DNA of 13,285 bases from assembly GCA_034189805.1 (NCBI GenBank), contig JAXHUC010000042.1, positions 8,726-22,010 on the forward strand. The letters are read 5' to 3'. The notes beneath the pieces were generated by a model, which saw nothing but the letters and a program-made list of their open reading frames with translations, was not told where the DNA came from and made no database searches. This DNA comes from Cyanobacteriota bacterium (GTDB lineage Bacteria; Cyanobacteriota; Cyanobacteriia; Cyanobacteriales; Geitlerinemataceae). Made by a program: the position numbers and the translations under genes. Positions within the stretch are counted from its first letter, which is position 1; each line of letters begins with the position of its first letter. Shown here piece by piece: positions 3 through 13,285 of the stretch.

Positions 3-350
3 CGGTATCGGTTAACATTGGCTGGGGATGCCGCATCGGACGCGCCGACAGAGGCGCAAATCCGCACTTGGATCGCTTCGATTCTCGATTGCAGTTCGAT
101 CGAAGTCGAACACACCACCAAGTCCGGGAAAAAGAAGCGGGTCAATCTGCGCGATCGCCTGTTCGAGCTGGAATTAGAGGAATTGGGTGAGGAAAGTTTC
201 CGCCTGGGATTTGTGGGCAGTTGTCGCAACGATGGGAATTTGTTGCGTCCGGCGCAAGTGGTTTACATGCTCGAGGAAGCCAGCAAGCGGGTGTTTTCAC
301 TGCTAAAGGTGCATCGAGAAGCGCTAATTCTGCAAGCCGATCTCGATTGA
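3..350 (+). CDS. 3' end of a gene that starts upstream of the window; tentatively a DUF2344/TIGR03936-type radical-SAM-linked protein
   Basis: The frame is open from the window edge (codons from nt 3: CGG TAT CGG TTA ACA TTG...) to TGA at 348-350. The track ORF simply begins at an internal TTG (18). The C-terminal sequence (...EVEHTTKSGKKKRVNLRDRLFELELEE...GSCRNDGNLLRPAQVVYMLEEA...) resembles, from memory, the C-terminal module of DUF2344 proteins, a family often encoded next to rne/rng. I cannot verify the family call here. Confidence 0.5.
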   Translation, partial: RYRLTLAGDAASDAPTEAQIRTWIASILDCSSIEVEHTTKSGKKKRVNLRDRLFELELEELGEESFRLGFVGSCRNDGNLLRPAQVVYMLEEASKRVFSLLKVHREALILQADLD

Positions 351-3725: not shown

Positions 3726-5009
3726 TCAACTCTCACTCGGATTTAAATTATTCTGACTGTTTCGATCTTCAGTTAACCAATCCATTAATCGATCGGAATT
3801 TTCAAATTCAAACATAGCCTTTCCAAGTTGTTCGAGCTGGTCGATCGGTAAGTTTTGAATTTGCTCTTCAATCGGAACCTCCAAACGACCGAATCGATGT
3901 TCGATTTGACCGATGAGTAACCGTTCCAATCCCTGACGAAAGCCCGTTTGAAATAGCCATTTTTCTAGATCGGCATCATTTTCAAAATCTAATAAGGCTT
4001 CGCTGAGTCCTTCAAGTTGTTCTAAAGATAAGTCACGAACTTGCTTTTCTAAGTTAGGACTGATGCTACCAAAACGATGCTTGAGCTGTCGCAAAACCGT
4101 GACGACAATTCCCAAGCCGATGCCCTGTTCGATGCCTTGTTCGATGCCTTGCTGAATGCCTTGAGCGATGCCCTGTTCGATGCCTTTTTCCATCCAACTC
4201 GTGACGATATCCATAATTCCTCTCCGTTCTTGTAATTGAAGTCGATCGAGTTCCGATTCAAAAATTTGTTCTTCAACTAAATTTAAAGGTAAATACGTAT
4301 CGATCAGTTTAGAAATAAGCTGCGATCGCTCGAACTTTAATCCTAAAGAAGCCAACAATCGCAAACATTCCACCTTAACCCTCGGACGCTCCTCCAGTTT
4401 CATTTGCATTTTTCCCATGAATGCCGCAGCAACGGGATTGGGCTGTTGGCGAAATTCTTGCCAATGCAATCGCGGTAAAGAAATCGAGACGAAGCTGAAT
4501 TCTAATACCTGGCGATCGGGAAACTTCACGCGATATCCATTGGTTTCTGAGGGGCGATCGCCCTCCTCTAAAAAGACGACAATCGGGTAAATGGGAATTC
4601 CATACCGGCGATCGAGTTCGACGACATCGTGAAACATCCGCCTGGCTAACCCCGTTCGATCGCTCAGATGATGTTCGACGCGAATGAAAAAGCAAGTCTG
4701 GCGATCTCGCAATCGCACTCGTGCCAGAAAATCCGTCTCATCCAATCGAGCGGCGACAGTACGACCGAACTCCTCGGGTTCCACAAAGGCGATCGACTCA
4801 CGATCGACTTCCCCCACTAAATGGGGTAAAAATAAAGCGATAAAGTCCCAGAAAAAGATAGATAGTAACTCATTGAGTAGGCGATCGCGTCCCTGACGTT
4901 GATTCAATCGATCTCTCCTTAGATGTAGACGATCCTCAAGGTAATTTTGCATGGGTCGGACATCCGGGCCAAACGCTCTCAACCTCGGGTTTTCCAAACC
5001 AACATTCAA
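3726..5009 (-). CDS. Rpn/YhgA-like PD-(D/E)XK (putative transposase-like nuclease) N-terminal region fused to two tandem DUF4351 modules
   Basis: The N-terminal half has the ...DFLARV...FFIRVEHH...RRMFHDVVELDRRYGIPIYPIVVFL pattern typical of cyanobacterial Rpn-family proteins. A (QGIE)n linker follows. Then come two homologous ~48-aa modules: VLRQLKHRFG...LSLEQLEGLSEALLDFENDADLEKWL (3954-4097) and LIGQIEHRFG...LPIDQLEQLGKAMFEFENSDRLMDWL (3774-3917), which match the DUF4351 signature. The start is uncertain: ATG 5009 or the in-frame ATG at 4952, with no clear SD at either. Confidence 0.7.
   Translation of the reverse strand: MNVGLENPRLRAFGPDVRPMQNYLEDRLHLRRDRLNQRQGRDRLLNELLSIFFWDFIALFLPHLVGEVDRESIAFVEPEEFGRTVAARLDETDFLARVRLRDRQTCFFIRVEHHLSDRTGLARRMFHDVVELDRRYGIPIYPIVVFLEEGDRPSETNGYRVKFPDRQVLEFSFVSISLPRLHWQEFRQQPNPVAAAFMGKMQMKLEERPRVKVECLRLLASLGLKFERSQLISKLIDTYLPLNLVEEQIFESELDRLQLQERRGIMDIVTSWMEKGIEQGIAQGIQQGIEQGIEQGIGLGIVVTVLRQLKHRFGSISPNLEKQVRDLSLEQLEGLSEALLDFENDADLEKWLFQTGFRQGLERLLIGQIEHRFGRLEVPIEEQIQNLPIDQLEQLGKAMFEFENSDRLMDWLTEDRNSQNNLNPSES
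4119..4190. repeat. In-frame 12-bp tandem repeat (6 units, GATGCCYTGYTC-like) encoding (E/Q)QGI repeats within the Rpn-like CDS
   Basis: Read directly: gatgccctgttc gatgccttgttc gatgccttgctg aatgccttgagc gatgccctgttc gatgcctttttc. On the - strand this encodes EKGIEQGIAQGIQQGIEQGIEQGI. Confidence 0.85.
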
Positions 5010-5021
5010 GCATAACCTAGA

Positions 5022-5148
5022 TGGGGATGTTCGGGGAGAGGGGGAGATGGGAGGACGCGGAGACGCGGAGAGGGGGGAAACGGAGGCAGGGGGAGAAACG
5101 GGAGAAACGGAGGCAGGGGGGGAAACGGGAGAAACGGGAGAATTGAGA
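5022..5148. repeat. Purine/G-rich tandem repeat tract in a divergent intergenic region
   Basis: The + strand is almost all G/A. It holds G-runs at 5023-5026, 5033-5036, 5040-5044 and 5049-5051. GGAGACGC-type octamers (approx 5052-5070) share GACGCGGAGAGGGGG with 8035-8049. Two 27-nt units, GAAACGGAGGCAGGGGG(A/G)GAAACGGGA (5077-5103 and 5104-5130), differ at 1 nt, and a partial third unit follows. Confidence 0.85.
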
Positions 5149-8005: not shown

Positions 8006-8072
8006 GGGGGACGCGGGGACGCGGGGACGCGGGGACGCGGAGAGGGGGAGGTGAGGGAGGTGAGGGAGGTGG
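8006..8072. repeat. G-rich short tandem repeats: (GGGGACGC)x4 (8007-8038) then (GGGAGGTGA)x3 (8046-8072); G-quadruplex consensus on the + strand
   Basis: Read directly. It starts 3 nt after the CHAT stop codon. G-runs of at least 4 lie at 8006-8010, 8015-8018, 8023-8026 and 8031-8034, separated by ACGC loops. Confidence 0.9.
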
Positions 8073-8125
8073 GGGAGAGTGAATGCAAAATTAAAAATTA
8101 AAAATTAAAAATGCAAAATTCTCCC
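8071..8125. repeat. A-rich intergenic element, copy 2 (one extra AAAAATT unit)
   Basis: GGGGGAGAGTGA-ATGCAAAATT(8083-8092)-AAAAATTAAAAATTAAAA-ATGCAAAATT(8111-8120)-CTCCC. GGGAGA (8073-8078) and TCTCCC (8120-8125) are inverted. It lies between the convergent CHAT and GH108 genes. Confidence 0.8.
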
Positions 8126-8164: not shown

Positions 8165-8710
8165 TTACAACATCCGAGAAAGTCGATCGAGCAAGTCCCG
8201 ATCGCGATTCAACCAACCCCGGAGAAATGCTTTCTGGGTGTCGTTTTCCCGAACGCGCTGATAGCGATAGAATATTCTCGCCCCGCAAACGGCCATGGCG
8301 ATCGCTTTGGGGTCTTCGGTTTCGAGCATTGACGGCTCGAATTTCGTCCCCACATCGAGTGCCAAAATTTCTTCGAGAAATAACAAGGCGTTATCGTGCC
8401 CGAAATTCACCGCCGTATCGAACATGCACAGTGCCAACGGGTACTTCATGTCATCGCAGTAGGCGGGTTTCCAGTACAGGTTGTAGTAAATGTCCATCAA
8501 CTCGTCGTCGGTGAGTTGCGCCACCGATTGCTGCGGAAGTTCTTTGCTAGTTCGGTAGCGATCGTAAACTGACTGAATCACCCCTTTCATCGTCTGACCC
8601 CCCAAATCGTCGGGATGATCGGACCAACCTCCTTCCCAACGCAGGGTAAATTCTAACGCCTTGAAAAAATTAATCGGTGGACTCAGCGGTTCCATATCAC
8701 TCGGTTTCAT
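8165..8710 (-). CDS. Glycoside hydrolase family 108-type N-acetylmuramidase (lysozyme-like; the PG_binding_3-like C-terminus is divergent)
   Basis: FFKALEFTLRWEGGWSDHPDDLGGQTMKGV matches the GH108 signature (hEGGyvndpxDpGGxTxxGI) with the catalytic Glu in EGG (codon 8633-8635). Downstream are LYWKP..CD.M...LALCMFDTAVNFG and RGWLNR motifs. The size is typical (181 aa). No N-terminal signal peptide is visible. Confidence 0.75.
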   Translation of the reverse strand: MKPSDMEPLSPPINFFKALEFTLRWEGGWSDHPDDLGGQTMKGVIQSVYDRYRTSKELPQQSVAQLTDDELMDIYYNLYWKPAYCDDMKYPLALCMFDTAVNFGHDNALLFLEEILALDVGTKFEPSMLETEDPKAIAMAVCGARIFYRYQRVRENDTQKAFLRGWLNRDRDLLDRLSRML

Positions 8711-8876: not shown

Positions 8877-9824
8877 ATGAGCGATCGAACCAAACCCACT
8901 TGGGCCGGTGAAGACTTACTTTCTCGATGCATCAACCTGTTAATTGGCACCAAACCGATTTATCGAGTGATGAAACATCAGGCGCGACAAGTCCTGATTA
9001 AAACCGCTGAAAAAAAGGGAATTCCCTGGCGAAAAACCTGCCGGGAACTGGAGGCTTCTGGAGTTCAACAGACCTATGAGGCGATCGCCAATCCCGAGAT
9101 AACCTATCCCGACTACTATCGCGTTCCCTTCCACGCCTACGACGAGGGGAATTTGTGCTGGAAGGCGGCTTTTGAGGCGGAATCGGCCACGCAGTCGATG
9201 GCATTGCGGGTGTGGCCCCAAGAAAATCTCACCTGGGAAGCGGCACAAGAGAGATTGCGATCGAGCTTTCATCAAGTGCTGGCAAATTACCATCCCCAAC
9301 CCGCGCACGATATCCTCGATCTCGGCTGTTCCGTCGGTCTCTCCACCCTCGCCTTGCACCGCTACTATTCCCGCACCCAACAAACTCCCGTACGGACGGT
9401 GGGATTAGATTTATCGCCGTATATGCTTGCCGTTGCCAAAAAACGGGACGAAAAAGGAGAAATTGCCGAATGGCGGCATGGCAAAGCTGAAGACACCGGT
9501 TTTCCCGATGCCTCCTTCGATATCGTTACCCTGCAATTTGTCATCCACGAGTTGCCCCGCCACGCCACTCGCGGGATTTTCCAGGAAGTGCGGCGGATTC
9601 TGCGTCCTGGGGGTGTCATGGCGATCGTTGATAATAACCCCAAATCCCCGGTTATCCAGAACCTTCCCCCGGCATTGTTTGTCCTGATGAAGAGTACGGA
9701 ACCCTGGAGTGACGATTACTATACTTTTGATGTGGAAGCGGCGATGGCTGATGTGGGTTTTGAGGTTAAAGCCACCGTTGCCAGCGATCCGCGTCACCGG
9801 ACTATTGTTGGAATTAAAAATTAA
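8877..9824 (+). CDS. Class I SAM-dependent methyltransferase (Methyltransf_11/25-like), substrate unknown
   Basis: Motif I ILDLGCSVGLST (9312-9347), post-I VGLDLSPYML, motif II FDIVTLQFVIHEL, motif III LRPGGVMAIVD. An N-terminal ~100-aa extension (LIGTKPIYRVMKHQARQVLIKTAEKKGIPW) is seen in a cyanobacterial/plastid methyltransferase clade that I cannot name with confidence. Confidence 0.85.
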   Translation: MSDRTKPTWAGEDLLSRCINLLIGTKPIYRVMKHQARQVLIKTAEKKGIPWRKTCRELEASGVQQTYEAIANPEITYPDYYRVPFHAYDEGNLCWKAAFEAESATQSMALRVWPQENLTWEAAQERLRSSFHQVLANYHPQPAHDILDLGCSVGLSTLALHRYYSRTQQTPVRTVGLDLSPYMLAVAKKRDEKGEIAEWRHGKAEDTGFPDASFDIVTLQFVIHELPRHATRGIFQEVRRILRPGGVMAIVDNNPKSPVIQNLPPALFVLMKSTEPWSDDYYTFDVEAAMADVGFEVKATVASDPRHRTIVGIKN

Positions 9825-9843
9825 AAATTAAAAATGCAAAATT
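9812..9843. repeat. A-rich intergenic element, copy 3 (right half only), overlapping the methyltransferase stop codon
   Basis: AATT(AAAAATT)x2 AAAA-ATGCAAAATT (9834-9843). The last codons ATT AAA AAT TAA (9813-9824) lie inside the repeat. Confidence 0.7.
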
Positions 9844-9930: not shown

Positions 9931-10170
9931 AAGATTTTGCTAAACCCGCCCTTACATCATTTTTCTTCGTATATGATACCTAAATATTTACCAATATTAT
10001 ACTTGATTTATGTTGATATTTTGATGGGTAAATTAAGAAAATTTTAGAAAAACCTTTCATTTCAAAATAGTGATTCACTACTTACCTTATAGAAATAAAA
10101 AAAGTGATTATAGCGTTTCTCAAATGGGTGAAGTATGACCAATGTAGGGGCGGGTTTAGCTAAAAATCTT
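9931..10170. mobile_element. MITE-like 240-bp insert: 26/28-nt terminal inverted repeats around an AT-rich core. Alternative reading: two adjacent copies of a dispersed GGGCGGGTTT hairpin repeat
   Basis: The left end is AAGATTTTGCTAAACCCGCCCTTACA (9931-9956). The reverse complement of the right end (10143-10170) is AAGATTTTTAGCTAAACCCGCCCCTACA. They differ by one 2-nt indel and one mismatch. The core (9957-10142) is conspicuously A+T-rich compared with the rest of the window and has no ORF of 60 aa or more. I see no obvious target-site duplication. Confidence 0.4.
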
Positions 10171-10327: not shown

Positions 10328-10504
10328 TTAGGACGATCGCATTTCCTCCTCCTCGGATTTCAAAAAGCTCCAGGCGAAGATAAAAGCGGAAATCAGCCAT
10401 GCAATGGGACTGGAAATAATGCCAATTTCAATCAGGGTAGCTAGGGTAAATTGGCTGGCGAGAATAATTTGCTTGCGGGTGCGTTTTTTGTCGATGAGTT
10501 GCAT
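10328..10504 (-). CDS. Small (58 aa) predicted membrane protein, below the ORF-track size cutoff
   Basis: Hand translation: MQLIDKKRTRKQIILASQFTLATLIEIGIISSPIAWLISAFIFAWSFLKSEEEEMRSS. It has a basic N-terminus, a ~35-residue hydrophobic core and an acidic tail. An in-frame TAA 33 nt upstream of the ATG means it cannot extend. No obvious SD. It is divergent from the STAND gene. Confidence 0.4.
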   Translation of the reverse strand: MQLIDKKRTRKQIILASQFTLATLIEIGIISSPIAWLISAFIFAWSFLKSEEEEMRSS

Positions 10505-10580
10505 TTGACTGTTGCGTTTTGGTTGGACATTTTTACGTTAGAAAATGGCAACCGCTCGCCTAGATCGAGTATGAGTTAGC

Positions 10581-10616
10581 TACAATCCAGTTAATGTCCA
10601 AGTTGCGTCCAACTTG
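10581..10616 (+). promoter_or_regulatory. Candidate -10 box TACAAT (10581-10586) followed by the perfect inverted repeat CAAGTTG-cgtc-CAACTTG (10599-10616); possible operator or leader hairpin of the HTH-STAND gene
   Basis: Read directly. It lies 42-59 nt upstream of the ATG at 10658, in the 153-bp divergent control region. No convincing -35. Confidence 0.3.
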
Positions 10617-10657: not shown

Positions 10658-13285
10658 ATGGCAGGCAACGCATCACGATCGCTCCAAGTTTCTCCAGAAA
10701 AGTTTCCCCTCATCGAAAAAGCACTGTTGCAATTTCCCTCAAAACGGGATTTGGCAGCGCAGTTGGGAATGTCGCCGAACACCGTTACCAATTTTTTTAA
10801 AGGTCGAAACGTACAACGTCAGAAGTTTCACCGGATTTGTAAAAAGCTCAAAGTGGACTGGCGGGAAGTTGCGGGGATTGCGGAAGTCGAGGAGAAAGAC
10901 AATTCGCAACCAGAGGCTACCCCAGAAACTCCCCTAGAAACAGAACCGATTCGGCAGATACCCCACAATATCCCCAGGGAAGGGAAGGCGGGATTTTTCG
11001 GACGGGAGGAGGAACTGGGGGAGTTGCGGCGACGGTTGCGCGAGGAGAAACAAGTTGCGATCGCAGCCGTTGCCGGAATGGGGGGTATGGGGAAAACGGA
11101 ACTCGCCGTTCGCTACGCACGCAAGTATCTTTCGGTATATCCCGGTGGGGTGTGCTGGATTGACTGTCGGGGAATCCCTGGGTTGCAAATCGTCGATTGG
11201 GTACGGGAAAAGTACCAGCTTGCACCACACGAAGAGTCTCAGTTGTCAGCACGGGAGGATTTGGCAGCACGAGTGCGATGGTGTTGGGACTACTTAGCCA
11301 GCCTCCCCACTCTGGTGGTTTTCGATGATGTCAGCCATTACTCGCAGCAGGTGGCGCAATATTTGCCGACGGATTCACTTCAAACCGGGGGAATTGAGGT
11401 GCTGCTGACGACGCGGTTGGATTTGGGAATCGAGCAGTTGTCGTTGAACGAGTTGCAGCCTCTGGCGGCGTTGGAGTTGCTGCGGGAAGTTTCGGTAAAG
11501 CAGGAGAAGGGGCAACTCGCGGGGATAGAACGGTTGGCGTGCGATGTGGCAACTCGGCAAGATGATGCCTCGGCGCTGTGCGAGTGGTTGGGATATTTGC
11601 CTTTGGGGTTGGAGTTAGCAGGGCGGTATTTGGCGCGGCAATCGGATTTGTCGTTTGGGAAGATGCTGGCGCGGTTGCAGAAGAAGGGGTTGGCGCACAA
11701 GGCGCTGATGGGGGATGAAACCACCGACCCCACTTGGACGCTAGCGGCAAAACGGGGAGTGGCAGCCGCGTTTGAGTTGAGTTGGGAAGGGTTGGATGAG
11801 AAAGCAAGAGTGCTGGGGTGTCAGTTGAGTTTGTACGCACCAGTGCGGTTGGGGTTTCTCTCTCGTGAAGTGTTAGAGGAGTGGCTGGAGGATGAAGATG
11901 CGGCAGAAGACTGGGTAGAGGCGAGAGGGGAACTGGAGAAACACCATTTGCTGCAAGCCGAAGATGGGGGATATCGGTTCCATCCCCTGATTCGGGAGTT
12001 TTTTGCCCTCAAGCGAGGAGAATATCCGGAGGCGGAGGAGTGGCAGCAGCAATTTATCGCGCAGATGGTGGCAGTGGCACGGAAAATTCCCGAGACACCG
12101 ACGCGAGCGGAGATTCAAAGCCTGGAACCGCAGATTCCTCATTTGGTGGAGGTGGCAGAGCGGTGGGTGGGGGAAGTTGACGATGAGGATGTGATTACGC
12201 TATTCACGCGGCTAGGTCGGTTTTATCAAGGTCAGGGATTCTACTCCCTCGCCGAACCTTGGTATAAAACTTGCCGAGATATGGTTTGCAAACGTCTGGG
12301 AAACAACCACCCCGATGTCGCCACCTCCCTCAACAACCTCGCCTCACTCTACTTTTCCCAAGGGCGGTACGAAGATGCCGAACCCCTTTACCTAGATGCC
12401 CTGGCACTGCGACGAAAACTCCTGGGAGAGAACCACCCCGATGTCGCCACCTCCCTCAACAACCTCGCCTCACTCTACTTTTCCCAAGGGCGGTACGAAG
12501 AAGCCGAACCCCTCCACCAAGATGCCCTGGCACTGCGACGAAAACTCCTGGGAGAGAACCACCCCGATGTCGCCACCTCCCTCAACAACCTCGCCTCACT
12601 CTACTTTTCCCAAGGGCGGTACGAAGAAGCCGAACCCCTTTACCAAGATGCCCTGACACTGATACGAAAACTCCTGGGAAACGAGCATCCCCATGTCGCC
12701 ACCTCCCTCAACAACCTCGCCTACCTCTACTCTTCCCAAGGGCGGTACGAAGATGCCGAACCCCTTTACCTAGATGCCCTGGCACTGCGACGAAAACTCC
12801 TCGGAGACAACCACCCCGATGTCGCCTCCTCCCTCAACAACCTCGCCGGACTCTACTCTTCCCAAGGGCGGTACGAGGATGCCGAACCCCTTTTACAAGA
12901 TGCCCTGGCACTGCGACGAGAACTCCTCGGGGACAACCATCCCGATGTCGCCTCCTCCCTCAACAACCTCGCCGAACTTTACCGTTCTCAAGGGCGGTAC
13001 GAGGATGCCGAACCCCTTTTACAAGATGCCCTGGCACTGTGGCGAAAACTCCTGGGAGAAGACCACCCCCATGTCGCCTCCTCCCTCAACAACCTCGCTG
13101 AACTCTACCGTTGCCAAGGGCGGTACGAAGATGCCGAACCCCTTTACCTAGATGCCCTGACACTGGTACGAAAACTCCTGGGAAACGAGCATCCCCATGT
13201 CGCCACCTCCCTCAACAACCTCGCCGGACTCTACAAATCCCAAGGGCGGTACGAAGATGCCGAACCCCTTTACCTAGATGCCCTG
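10658..13285 (+). CDS. HTH - NB-ARC (STAND/AP-ATPase) - TPR protein, NLR-like; 3' end lies beyond the window (876 codons visible)
   Basis: Absent from the supplied track because it has no stop in the window. Hand translation of + frame 2 gives TGA at 10646-10648, the first ATG at 10658, then an open frame to 13285. Motifs: HTH-like KRDLAAQLGMSPNTVTNFFKG (10742-10804); FFGREEELGELRRRL; P-loop GMGGMGKT (11075-11098); Walker B LVVFDDV (11312-11332); LLTTR (11402-11416); GYLPLGLE (11591-11614); FHPLIREF at the MHD-like position (11978-12001). Then come one degenerate and at least 8 canonical kinesin-light-chain-type TPRs (LGxxHPxVAxSLNNLAxLYxSQGRYExAEPLxxDALxLxRKL). Confidence 0.9.
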   Translation, partial: MAGNASRSLQVSPEKFPLIEKALLQFPSKRDLAAQLGMSPNTVTNFFKGRNVQRQKFHRICKKLKVDWREVAGIAEVEEKDNSQPEATPETPLETEPIRQIPHNIPREGKAGFFGREEELGELRRRLREEKQVAIAAVAGMGGMGKTELAVRYARKYLSVYPGGVCWIDCRGIPGLQIVDWVREKYQLAPHEESQLSAREDLAARVRWCWDYLASLPTLVVFDDVSHYSQQVAQYLPTDSLQTGGIEVLLTTRLDLGIEQLSLNELQPLAALELLREVSVKQEKGQLAGIERLACDVATRQDDASALCEWLGYLPLGLELAGRYLARQSDLSFGKMLARLQKKGLAHKALMGDETTDPTWTLAAKRGVAAAFELSWEGLDEKARVLGCQLSLYAPVRLGFLSREVLEEWLEDEDAAEDWVEARGELEKHHLLQAEDGGYRFHPLIREFFALKRGEYPEAEEWQQQFIAQMVAVARKIPETPTRAEIQSLEPQIPHLVEVAERWVGEVDDEDVITLFTRLGRFYQGQGFYSLAEPWYKTCRDMVCKRLGNNHPDVATSLNNLASLYFSQGRYEDAEPLYLDALALRRKLLGENHPDVATSLNNLASLYFSQGRYEEAEPLHQDALALRRKLLGENHPDVATSLNNLASLYFSQGRYEEAEPLYQDALTLIRKLLGNEHPHVATSLNNLAYLYSSQGRYEDAEPLYLDALALRRKLLGDNHPDVASSLNNLAGLYSSQGRYEDAEPLLQDALALRRELLGDNHPDVASSLNNLAELYRSQGRYEDAEPLLQDALALWRKLLGEDHPHVASSLNNLAELYRCQGRYEDAEPLYLDALTLVRKLLGNEHPHVATSLNNLAGLYKSQGRYEDAEPLYLDAL
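12296..13285 (+). repeat. Tandem array of 126-bp (42-codon) TPR-encoding units, 7 complete plus 1 partial, continuing past the window
   Basis: Unit boundaries are 12296, 12422, 12548, 12674, 12800, 12926, 13052 and 13178. Units 1-3 differ at 5-6 of 126 nt (counted by eye). The stretch 12394-12513 recurs perfectly at 12520-12639. Confidence 0.95.

Follow-up and report, generated by a model that had tools for sequence, protein, structure and literature searches.

Oligomerization of MalT, driven by inducer and ATP, permits cooperative binding to repeated promoter boxes, and AfsR binds direct repeats that overlap the −35 region with a spacing of roughly one helical turn. In antiviral signal transduction ATPases with numerous domains (STANDs) of the Avs and bNACHT classes, the sensor binds phage proteins. 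MalT, GutR, and AfsR are named as STAND transcription factors in PMC13581612 and PMC7159879, and according to the latter, bacterial STANDs have been studied mainly as transcription regulators. Cyanobacterial conflict systems with a helix-turn-helix (HTH) domain in the effector position are also on record, in PMC7159879 and PMC8195603, with the comment that this 'points to a transcriptional response'; the HTH classes named there are CRP-like (PMC7159879) and ECF-like (PMC8195603). Here, we describe a gene at the 3' end of a 13,285-nt stretch of DNA (hereinafter designated the window) from a Cyanobacteriota bacterium of the Geitlerinemataceae (assembly GCA_034189805.1, contig JAXHUC010000042.1, positions 8,726 to 22,010). 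On the best reading, this gene would encode an ATP-driven sensor resembling nucleotide-binding leucine-rich repeat receptors (NLRs), with a small DNA-binding domain instead of an enzyme at its output end. Work on bacterial NLR-like STANDs has concentrated on enzymatic immune heads or on classical regulators (MalT and AfsR, for example), and this locus lies between the two. STAND transcription factors and HTH heads in conflict systems are already known; what is new is this Xre-headed variant.

Translation of the window from position 10658 in forward frame 2 gives 876 codons and zero stops up to the last base, as a sequence-only reading of this stretch had proposed for a gene absent from its list of open reading frames (ORFs). 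The gene was left out only because the listing tool skips any ORF still open at the edge of the source sequence. The ATG at 10658 is the first start codon downstream of an in-frame stop four codons earlier. The protein is identical to a protein of a metagenome-assembled genome at NCBI (P0001), where it is named 'tetratricopeptide repeat protein, partial'. All six motifs of the series that had been claimed are present, in the order claimed (Table 1), and the Pfam match to NB-ARC that had been expected was obtained, with 35.6 bits against a cutoff of 23.5 (residues 117–299). Together, the Pfam score and the ordered motifs assign the predicted protein to the NB-ARC (AP-ATPase) clade of STAND NTPases. 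The closest solved structure is that of AfsR, with an E-value of 2.5e-7 over residues 87–448. Rfam and tRNA scans of the window gave no match.

The remainder of the protein is an array of tetratricopeptide repeats (TPRs), the presumed sensor. TPR_12 matches with 528.7 bits in eight stretches and TPR_10 with 431.9 bits in nine, in agreement with the claim of at least eight KLC-type TPRs; a TPR_MalT match of 103 bits is confined to the array. At the DNA level, the array has a tandem period of 126 nt, with 7.9 copies at 90% identity, and extends to the last base of the window; the assembly therefore breaks off within the gene's own repeats and leaves the gene truncated. The eight units keep a 42-aa register, with DNA identities of 84–96% (mean 0.889), and the amino-acid variation among them clusters at unit positions 5, 6, 19, 22, 34, and 41. 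The ratio of nonsynonymous to synonymous differences (pN/pS) is 2.35 at the variable positions versus 0.40, a contrast that is descriptive only because the positions were picked for being variable. Highly conserved repeats with focused variation are found in fungal and bacterial NLR-like proteins, which the array resembles.

The N-terminal head is probably a Cro/C1 (Xre)-type HTH domain, marginal by sequence and supported by the predicted fold. Specifically, HTH_31 scores 24.7 bits in a scan of the whole protein (under its cutoff of 27), HTH_3 scores 23.5 bits at residues 28–70 when the first 119 residues are scanned alone (cutoff 23), and HTH_26 scores 21.7 bits with the head alone (under its cutoff of 22). 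The heads of relatives clear the HTH_3 or HTH_26 cutoffs. An HTH had been placed at about residues 25–70; the position agrees with the HTH_3 match, and the scores remain marginal. In an AlphaFold2 model computed from six aligned heads and ending at residue 119, five helices (13–23, 29–36, 40–48, 54–64, and 68–71) are predicted with a predicted local distance difference test (pLDDT) score of 81–87, and a conserved SRSLxV strand precedes the head. The structure prediction and Foldseek search that had been proposed for the N-terminus thus favor an HTH: among the matches listed, those in the PDB are mostly Cro/C1/Xre-type HTH domains, including VanU, HipB, C.BclI, C.Esp1396I, lambda cI, and MBF1/EDF1, with a probability of ~1 and weak E-values of 6e-3 to 0.1. 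The PHROG matches of the head are transcriptional regulators. The head is joined to the NB-ARC by a linker with pLDDT below 50 at residues 75–110 and 112–119, which varies among relatives in both length and sequence.

The non-repeat part of the protein (residues 1–520) has >2000 relatives, nearly all in filamentous cyanobacteria. The HTH head is found on an NB-ARC-TPR body in P0002, P0003, P0008, P0011, P0013, P0021, and P0037, while other relatives carry EAD4, EAD10, CHAT, caspase, or very short N-termini on the same body. A 'MQWDEFL...LSPEQTAAF' module, which has no Pfam match in our scan, is a very common head of close NB-ARC-TPR paralogues. The clearest exchange is between loci L002 and L039. 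The L002 protein (P0013, HTH head) is 77% identical to the L039 protein from the linker ('YENLGRKGV...FIGRDEKLKELH') through the NB-ARC, and the two are unrelated N-terminal to the linker, where L039 has EAD4 (E-value 3e-35). The boundary of the HTH/EAD4 swap falls within the linker. Because HTH and EAD4 occur on a 77% identical body, the HTH sits in a swappable effector/adaptor slot. As judged from these sequences, HTH, EAD4, EAD10, CHAT, and caspase would be interchangeable heads of one body, as in NTP-dependent conflict systems. The gene thus belongs to a rapidly diversifying, conflict-system-like NB-ARC-TPR family in which a predicted DNA-binding head is interchangeable with the EAD4 adaptor.

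The same head is also found on several other bodies. Using a tight head alignment, we collected 22 genome loci and 7 metagenome loci, in which the head occurs on NB-ARC-WD40 (L008, L010), NACHT-NCH2 (L004, L005, L013, L022, L026), AAA_16/nSTAND5-type NTPase (L018, L024), and AAA_35 (L012) bodies and on TRADD-N plus pentapeptide-repeat proteins (L009, L011, L014, L020, L025). In an exhaustive HMMER scan, only 315 of 1.84 billion representatives matched the head at E ≤ 1e-3, indicating a narrow family, and the match nearly always begins no more than a few residues from the N-terminus of the target. Among the best 147 of the 315, NACHT-like P-loops are commoner than NB-ARC-like ones, and a small number of proteins consist of heads in tandem. 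P0209 and P0210, for example, have two or three tandem HTH heads (each starting GRSLQ/RSLRV...) followed by a non-NTPase tail. A protein search with the head profile returned only proteins of ≤242 aa and missed its own full-length seeds, so that its output gives no measure of the share of stand-alone heads.

The DNA upstream of the gene contains a candidate operator composed of two GTMCAASTT repeats (Table 1), located 43–62 nt upstream of the start codon inside a 153-nt divergent intergenic region. These are the only GTMCAASTT matches on either strand of the window, where 0.28 would be expected; two or more matches occur in 5 of 200 shuffles. The promoter-proximal DNA can be aligned with that of L001, L004, L005, and L006, the proteins of which are only ~43–54% identical, and a conserved TGAAAY lies immediately 5' of the ATG in this alignment. 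We searched 310,669 bp on both strands for paired motifs with ≤1 mismatch per half and a gap of 1–3 nt, using local shuffles as the control. There are four matches, compared with a shuffle mean of 0.32 and maximum of 1, and all four are on the sense strand, 5' of genes with an HTH head (NB-ARC bodies in two cases, NACHT bodies in the other two), at −62 in the window, −62 in L001, −60 in L004, and −51 in L026. The four loci are those whose heads most resemble the query head. The pair was not found at the EAD4-headed loci L039 and L041 or at the MQW-/short-headed loci L040 and L042 among the loci examined.

An unbiased k-mer test of the first 120 nt upstream of HTH-headed genes (28 non-redundant genes, 2006 background windows) also shows enrichment. 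The top 7-mer, TGTCCAA, is present in 7 of 28 upstream regions and 22 of 2006 background windows (Bonferroni p = 1.2e-4), and the top 6-mer, ACAAGT, in 9 of 28 and 97 of 2006 (Bonferroni p = 8e-3). Only two copies of TGTCCAA exist on either strand of the window, both intergenic, one facing each divergent gene. The GTMCAASTT pair behaves as expected of a binding site that moves together with its head and is, on this sequence evidence, a candidate operator. On this view, the head would bind GTMCAASTT and act in regulation. The transcriptional read-out proposed in the sequence-only reading thus gains a position-conserved candidate operator and a head swap, while DNA binding and regulation keep the status of inference.

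Other head subtypes have other upstream sequences. The recognition helix reads AYAT[VA]SKFF in L002 and L033, compared with MSPNTVTNFF, and the upstream block conserved between these two loci also differs; it contains TATATGCGTTT twice, ~21 nt apart, and may be a different operator set for their head subtype. Inspection by eye suggests strong conservation of ~70 nt of intergenic DNA between L002:7836-8000 (Microcoleus) and L033:4534-4640 (Argonema), with clearly greater divergence in the neighboring HTH domains. In L003:7890-8000 and in L007 (upstream of 4697), which come from a metagenomic genome and Prochloron, a 12-nt unit, GTGACTGAGTTC, forms 4–5 tandem copies directly 5' of an HTH-NB-ARC-TPR gene; the divergent neighbor at these loci encodes a 75-aa ribbon-helix-helix (RHH)-like protein, not a hairpin membrane protein. 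In the divergent intergenic regions of the EAD4-headed loci L039:1248-1399 and L041:2832-3000, there are TTTGGGGAT(N)CCCCAAA-like palindromes, for example GTTTGGGGATTCCCCAAACTT in L041 and GGTTTGGGGATGCCCAAAGC in L039. These palindromes could be a head-specific cis-element, which would be unexpected for a presumed adaptor domain.

The other side of the intergenic region is occupied by a small gene encoding a 58-aa protein (hypothetical protein SWY16_11495 at NCBI), the start of which is 153 nt from the start codon of the STAND gene. In relatives, a gene of 54–77 aa is found at the same divergent position, while the wider neighborhoods are unrelated. The 58-aa ORF and the ORF of L002 are reciprocal best non-self matches (E-value ~1e-5) among ~5000 six-frame segments, and a word-indexed search for the small protein gives six relatives. 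A single family was at first rejected, when the hidden Markov models of L004–L006 and of the window, L001, and L002 missed each other. The L033 sequence bridges the groups: its best non-self matches are L004 (2.8e-4), the L002 group (2.9e-4 to 1.4e-3), and L001 (4.4e-4), which are exactly the ORFs at the same divergent position in those loci. Iterative searching that starts from L033 brings together the window, L001, L002/L036/L037/L038, L039, L041, and L004–L006, with the next match at E ≥ 0.18; the membership of L001 depends on L033 alone. Between L002 and L039, pN/pS of the small ORF is 0.22 in frame, compared with 0.79 and 1.61 in the shifted frames, and the adjoining intergenic DNA aligns poorly, with ~50% identity over 93 alignable columns. 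By this comparison, the family is under purifying selection.

Members of the small family have a basic N-terminus, two hydrophobic helices flanking a conserved (N/S/P)(S/P/G)xxG turn, and an acidic tail, and AlphaFold2 predicts helices at residues 3–26 and 33–57 of the window protein with a pLDDT of 66. There are zero Pfam or PHROG matches, and annotation carries the family, which we flag here, only as 'hypothetical'. The small gene is found beside NB-ARC genes with an EAD4 head (L039, L041) and beside both NB-ARC and NACHT genes with an HTH head, which makes it a companion of the STAND gene and not of the HTH alone. A two-transmembrane divergent small protein is found at L022 and L026 and an RHH-like one at L003 and L007. 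The divergent neighbors of the HTH-TRADD-N-pentapeptide proteins in L009 (2200-2463, − strand) and L011 (4509-4802, − strand) contain the two-transmembrane domain CyanoTRADDas_TM (PF20712, 4e-18), which indicates that HTH-headed proteins are repeatedly paired with small, divergently encoded membrane proteins of unrelated families.

In Bell/BASS amyloid-signaling NLR pairs, said to have been described by Dyrka et al., a short motif is reportedly common to the adjacent small effector and the NLR N-terminus. We rejected such a pairing here, because there is no local alignment between the 58-aa protein and residues 1–120 of the STAND protein, and the N-terminus is a predicted folded HTH. The layout described for these pairs is seen in Nostoc punctiforme, where a 167-aa gene (L042:2422-2925, + strand) is co-directional with, and 76 nt 5' of, an NB-ARC-TPR paralogue with a short N-terminus.

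These data would best be explained by a STAND switch whose Xre heads bind the divergent promoter of its own gene, an explanation we hold with about as much doubt as confidence. The near-identical TPR units would form the sensing surface for a trigger, and the NB-ARC, with its intact set of Walker A, Walker B, sensor, and MHD-like motifs, would turn sensing into oligomerization. Activation would gather several HTH heads for binding to the tandem GTMCAASTT repeats of the 153-nt promoter region that the two genes share. Once bound, the heads would control expression of the STAND gene and, probably, of the gene for the divergent 58-aa hairpin membrane protein, a conserved companion and plausible membrane-acting effector. 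The candidate operator coincides in part with the −35 region expected for the STAND promoter and is ~90–110 nt from the start codon of the small gene; this placement would be compatible with autoregulation and control of the divergent gene. With a candidate operator and a small partner in hand, the transcriptional output of an NLR-like sensor becomes testable by simple binding or reporter assays. The STAND protein may have a role in defense or programmed cell death. An alarm or suicide cassette, in which the Xre heads of a triggered oligomer on GTMCAASTT switch on a holin- or type-I-toxin-like effector of ~58 aa from a new family, with head and operator moving together between NB-ARC, NACHT, and TRADD-N bodies, is a reading that we regard as rather unlikely; if it is true, the palindromes of the EAD4 loci would hint that adaptor heads, too, have unrecognized cis-regulatory partners.

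Several observations weigh against the self-binding switch. The head's Pfam scores lie at or just under the cutoffs and its Foldseek E-values are ≥6e-3, making the HTH assignment marginal by sequence, and the C-terminus of the protein is missing at the contig end. The strict paired motif is present in only 4 of ~28 non-redundant HTH-headed loci, the others having related cores or different repeats, and a simple sigma-70 promoter scan gave no promoter for either divergent gene. The EAD4-headed loci have the small gene and lack the motif, implying that any dependence of its expression on this HTH cannot be general; the small protein may interact with the NB-ARC body instead of being a transcriptional target, and other HTH-headed loci have different small neighbors or none. 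PADLOC, a check proposed in the sequence-only reading, returned for the STAND protein a generic 'TPR' match and a weak PDC-M71B match in the TPR region, and no defense model.

The protein could instead be an ordinary physiological regulator of the AfsR/MalT type, with TPRs that sense a metabolite or partner and an HTH that activates housekeeping, developmental, or secondary-metabolite genes elsewhere. Conflict and cell death would then lie outside its function, and the small neighbor would be incidental or one member of a regulon. The AfsR structure match, the best NCBIfam matches (regulator and TPR families), the lack of defense model matches, the annotation of one relative (P0022) as 'putative transcriptional regulator', and the emphasis of the literature on STANDs as transcription regulators (PMC7159879) all point this way. 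A fixed regulon is, however, at odds with the EAD4 swap on a 77% identical body and the CHAT- and caspase-headed sisters, the signature of a diversifying conflict system, and with the location of the gene, which varies and lies amid toxin-antitoxin and mobile genes; in the near-identity of its repeats and the focused variation between them, the array is reminiscent of NLR sensors, and the conserved motif sits at the gene's own promoter. We consider this explanation doubtful.

The retention of the small gene with the NB-ARC body under either an HTH or an EAD4 head suits a different arrangement, in which the HTH merely autoregulates the amount of sensor and the activated NB-ARC oligomer engages the small hairpin protein, leading to membrane damage or relocalization. 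Xre-type HTH domains are commonly autorepressors, as in type II toxin-antitoxin systems, and the paired motif lies across the sequence where the −35 region of the STAND promoter would be expected. This arrangement leaves aside the second TGTCCAA, which faces the small gene in what is a classic layout for co-regulation, and no motif is common to the small protein and the STAND N-terminus. Moreover, the same head is found on NACHT bodies with the same small-gene family (L004–L006), so the link of the small gene to the NB-ARC body is not exclusive; we judge the arrangement unlikely. That the head is a homotypic adaptor of the EAD/Death-like kind, which recruits separate proteins with the same module and does not bind DNA, is very improbable. 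It does occupy the slot used by EAD adaptors, and the module is also found as small stand-alone proteins and tandem arrays, but many of the short 'stand-alone' matches come from short contigs and may be fragments, its sequence and fold group with Cro/C1 DNA-binding domains, and a position-conserved motif travels with it.

The remaining genes of the window bear less on the self-binding switch. The adjacency of a TPR-CHAT protease had been considered meaningful. We rejected this gene as a partner, since it is 2.6 kb away, two unrelated genes for a muramidase and a methyltransferase lie between, and it is absent near relatives; neither the TPR-CHAT nor the GH108 muramidase gene is conserved beside the STAND relatives examined. 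As the survey proposed earlier now indicates, the wider STAND neighborhoods differ among relatives, with abundant toxin-antitoxin and mobile genes. G-rich micro-tandem repeats lie on either side of the TPR-CHAT gene, at 5073-5142 (GGGAGAAAC, upstream) and 8007-8082 (GGGGACGC ×4 and GGGAGGTGA ×4, downstream). An exact 32-nt AT-rich repeat, AATTAAAAATTAAAAATTAAAAATGCAAAATT, is present at 8089-8120 and 9812-9843; copy 1 begins 86 nt past the TPR-CHAT stop (8003), and copy 2 overlaps the methyltransferase stop (9824). A 23-nt inverted repeat (9935-9957 and 10142-10164, 91% complementary, 184 nt apart), situated in the AT-rich gap (GC 0.37) directly before the small ORF, looks like a miniature inverted-repeat element. 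The DUF4351 gene lies in a low-GC patch (0.41–0.44) next to the RNase E and RNase HII genes, with a 12-nt tandem repeat at 4118-4190, and is probably an inserted mobile-element-related gene. The RNase E of the window scores 1030 bits against the cyanobacterial RNase E model.

Table 1. Coordinates of features in the window (positions on the 13,285-nt stretch; residues of the STAND protein)
Feature	Residues	Position	Strand	Basis or remark
HTH-NB-ARC-TPR STAND gene		10658..13285	+	Open frame; Pfam NB-ARC, TPR_10/12, HTH; 876 codons, 3' end missing
Xre/Cro-C1-type HTH head (probable)	11-72	10688..10873	+	HTH_3, AlphaFold2, Foldseek, PHROG
Low-complexity Pro/Glu-rich linker	73-112	10874..10993	+	Predicted disordered
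NB-ARC NTPase and winged-helix region		10994..12007	+	Pfam above cutoff, motif positions, AfsR structure match
FFGREEEL	113-120		+	Translated sequence
Walker A, GMGGMGKT	140-147	11075-11098	+	Translated sequence
Walker B, LVVFDDV	219-225	11312-11332	+	Translated sequence
RNBS-B/sensor 1, LLTTR	249-253	11402-11416	+	Translated sequence
GLPL-like, GYLPLGLE	312-319	11591-11614	+	Translated sequence
MHD-like, FHPLIREF	441-448	11978-12001	+	His in winged helix
TPR_10/TPR_12 units of 42 aa, 7 full and 1 partial		12290..13285	+	TRF, Pfam; presumed sensor
Candidate operator, GTCCAAGTTGC GTCCAACTT		10596..10615	+	Two GTMCAASTT, 11-nt period; positional conservation, enrichment
−10-like TATAAA		10632-10637	+	Begins 16 nt past the end of the candidate operator
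Second TGTCCAA copy		10523..10529	−	Faces the small ORF, 19-25 nt upstream of its start codon
58-aa hairpin membrane-like protein gene		10328..10504	−	ORF, reciprocal matches, purifying selection
TPR-CHAT protease, 912 aa		5265-8003	+	Faint similarity to Csx29, E 0.006
GH108 muramidase with peptidoglycan-binding domain		8165-8710	−	Library scans
DUF4351 protein, 427 aa		3726-5009	−	Two DUF4351 matches; weak Rpn-family nuclease/transposase match

FxSxx-COOH systems contain a radical-SAM enzyme and a precursor ending in FxSxx. Assignment to such a system was rejected: the STAND protein scores 286.8 bits against the cutoff of 300 for the FxSxx-COOH system TPR protein (NF040586), the seven window proteins scanned gave no match to other FxSxx-system families and no radical-SAM enzyme, and the small partner ends in ...EMRSS. 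MalT and the other large ATP-binding LuxR-family (LAL) regulators likewise combine a STAND NTPase, a helical-repeat sensor, and an HTH output. MalT, however, belongs to a different STAND clade and has a C-terminal LuxR-type HTH, whereas the HTH here is N-terminal and of Cro/C1 type; in full-length relatives (794–833 aa), the C-terminal part consists of TPRs and no LuxR domain is recorded. Antiviral STANDs (Avs1–5, bNACHT) have the same layout of head, STAND NTPase, and repeat sensor, with nucleases, proteases, TIR domains, and similar heads.

Fusions of a Sigma70-region-4 head with NB-ARC and TPR_MalT in cyanobacteria (PMC11119718) also have a DNA-binding head on NB-ARC, TPR, or AAA_35 bodies, with a different HTH class. 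The sigma70-region-4 head may correspond to the 'MQWDEFL...LSPEQTAAF' head, which has no Pfam match in our scan. The NTP-dependent conflict systems and TRADD-N proteins of multicellular bacteria (Kaur et al. 2020, PMC7159879; 2021, PMC8195603) have AP-ATPase or NACHT bodies, repeat sensors, and highly variable effector or EAD heads, as in this locus, and the Xre head is also present on TRADD-N-pentapeptide proteins beside CyanoTRADDas_TM genes. The searched text of the two papers does not describe an Xre head on NB-ARC-TPR, the candidate operator, or the hairpin family of 55–80 aa. Nor did we find in the literature a description of a mobile Xre head across NB-ARC, NACHT, AAA_35, and TRADD-N bodies, of the candidate operator, of the HTH/EAD4 swap on a 77% identical body, or of the hairpin small-protein family.

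The closest comparison is with AfsR and the large SARP regulators of Streptomyces (SARP-NB-ARC-TPR; PDB 8k60, 8jke), which have the same order of parts: DNA-binding head, NB-ARC, and TPR_10/12. The SARP head consists of an OmpR-type winged helix and BTAD, whereas the head here is a 60-residue Cro/C1 HTH. Pfam scans of the STAND protein gave no match to Trans_reg_C or BTAD, the SARP head that defines AfsR being absent, and the NCBIfam AfsR score (105 bits, cutoff 1430) places the protein outside the SARP/AfsR family. The 'NLR-like sensor wired to gene expression' of the sequence-only reading is thus borne out as an architecture, while the concept has precedents in MalT, GutR, and AfsR. The candidate operator would match the direct-repeat layout bound by AfsR. 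Compared with Streptomyces AfsR, the present protein has a cyanobacterial host, repeats that are near-identical in DNA, and a conserved small membrane-protein partner.

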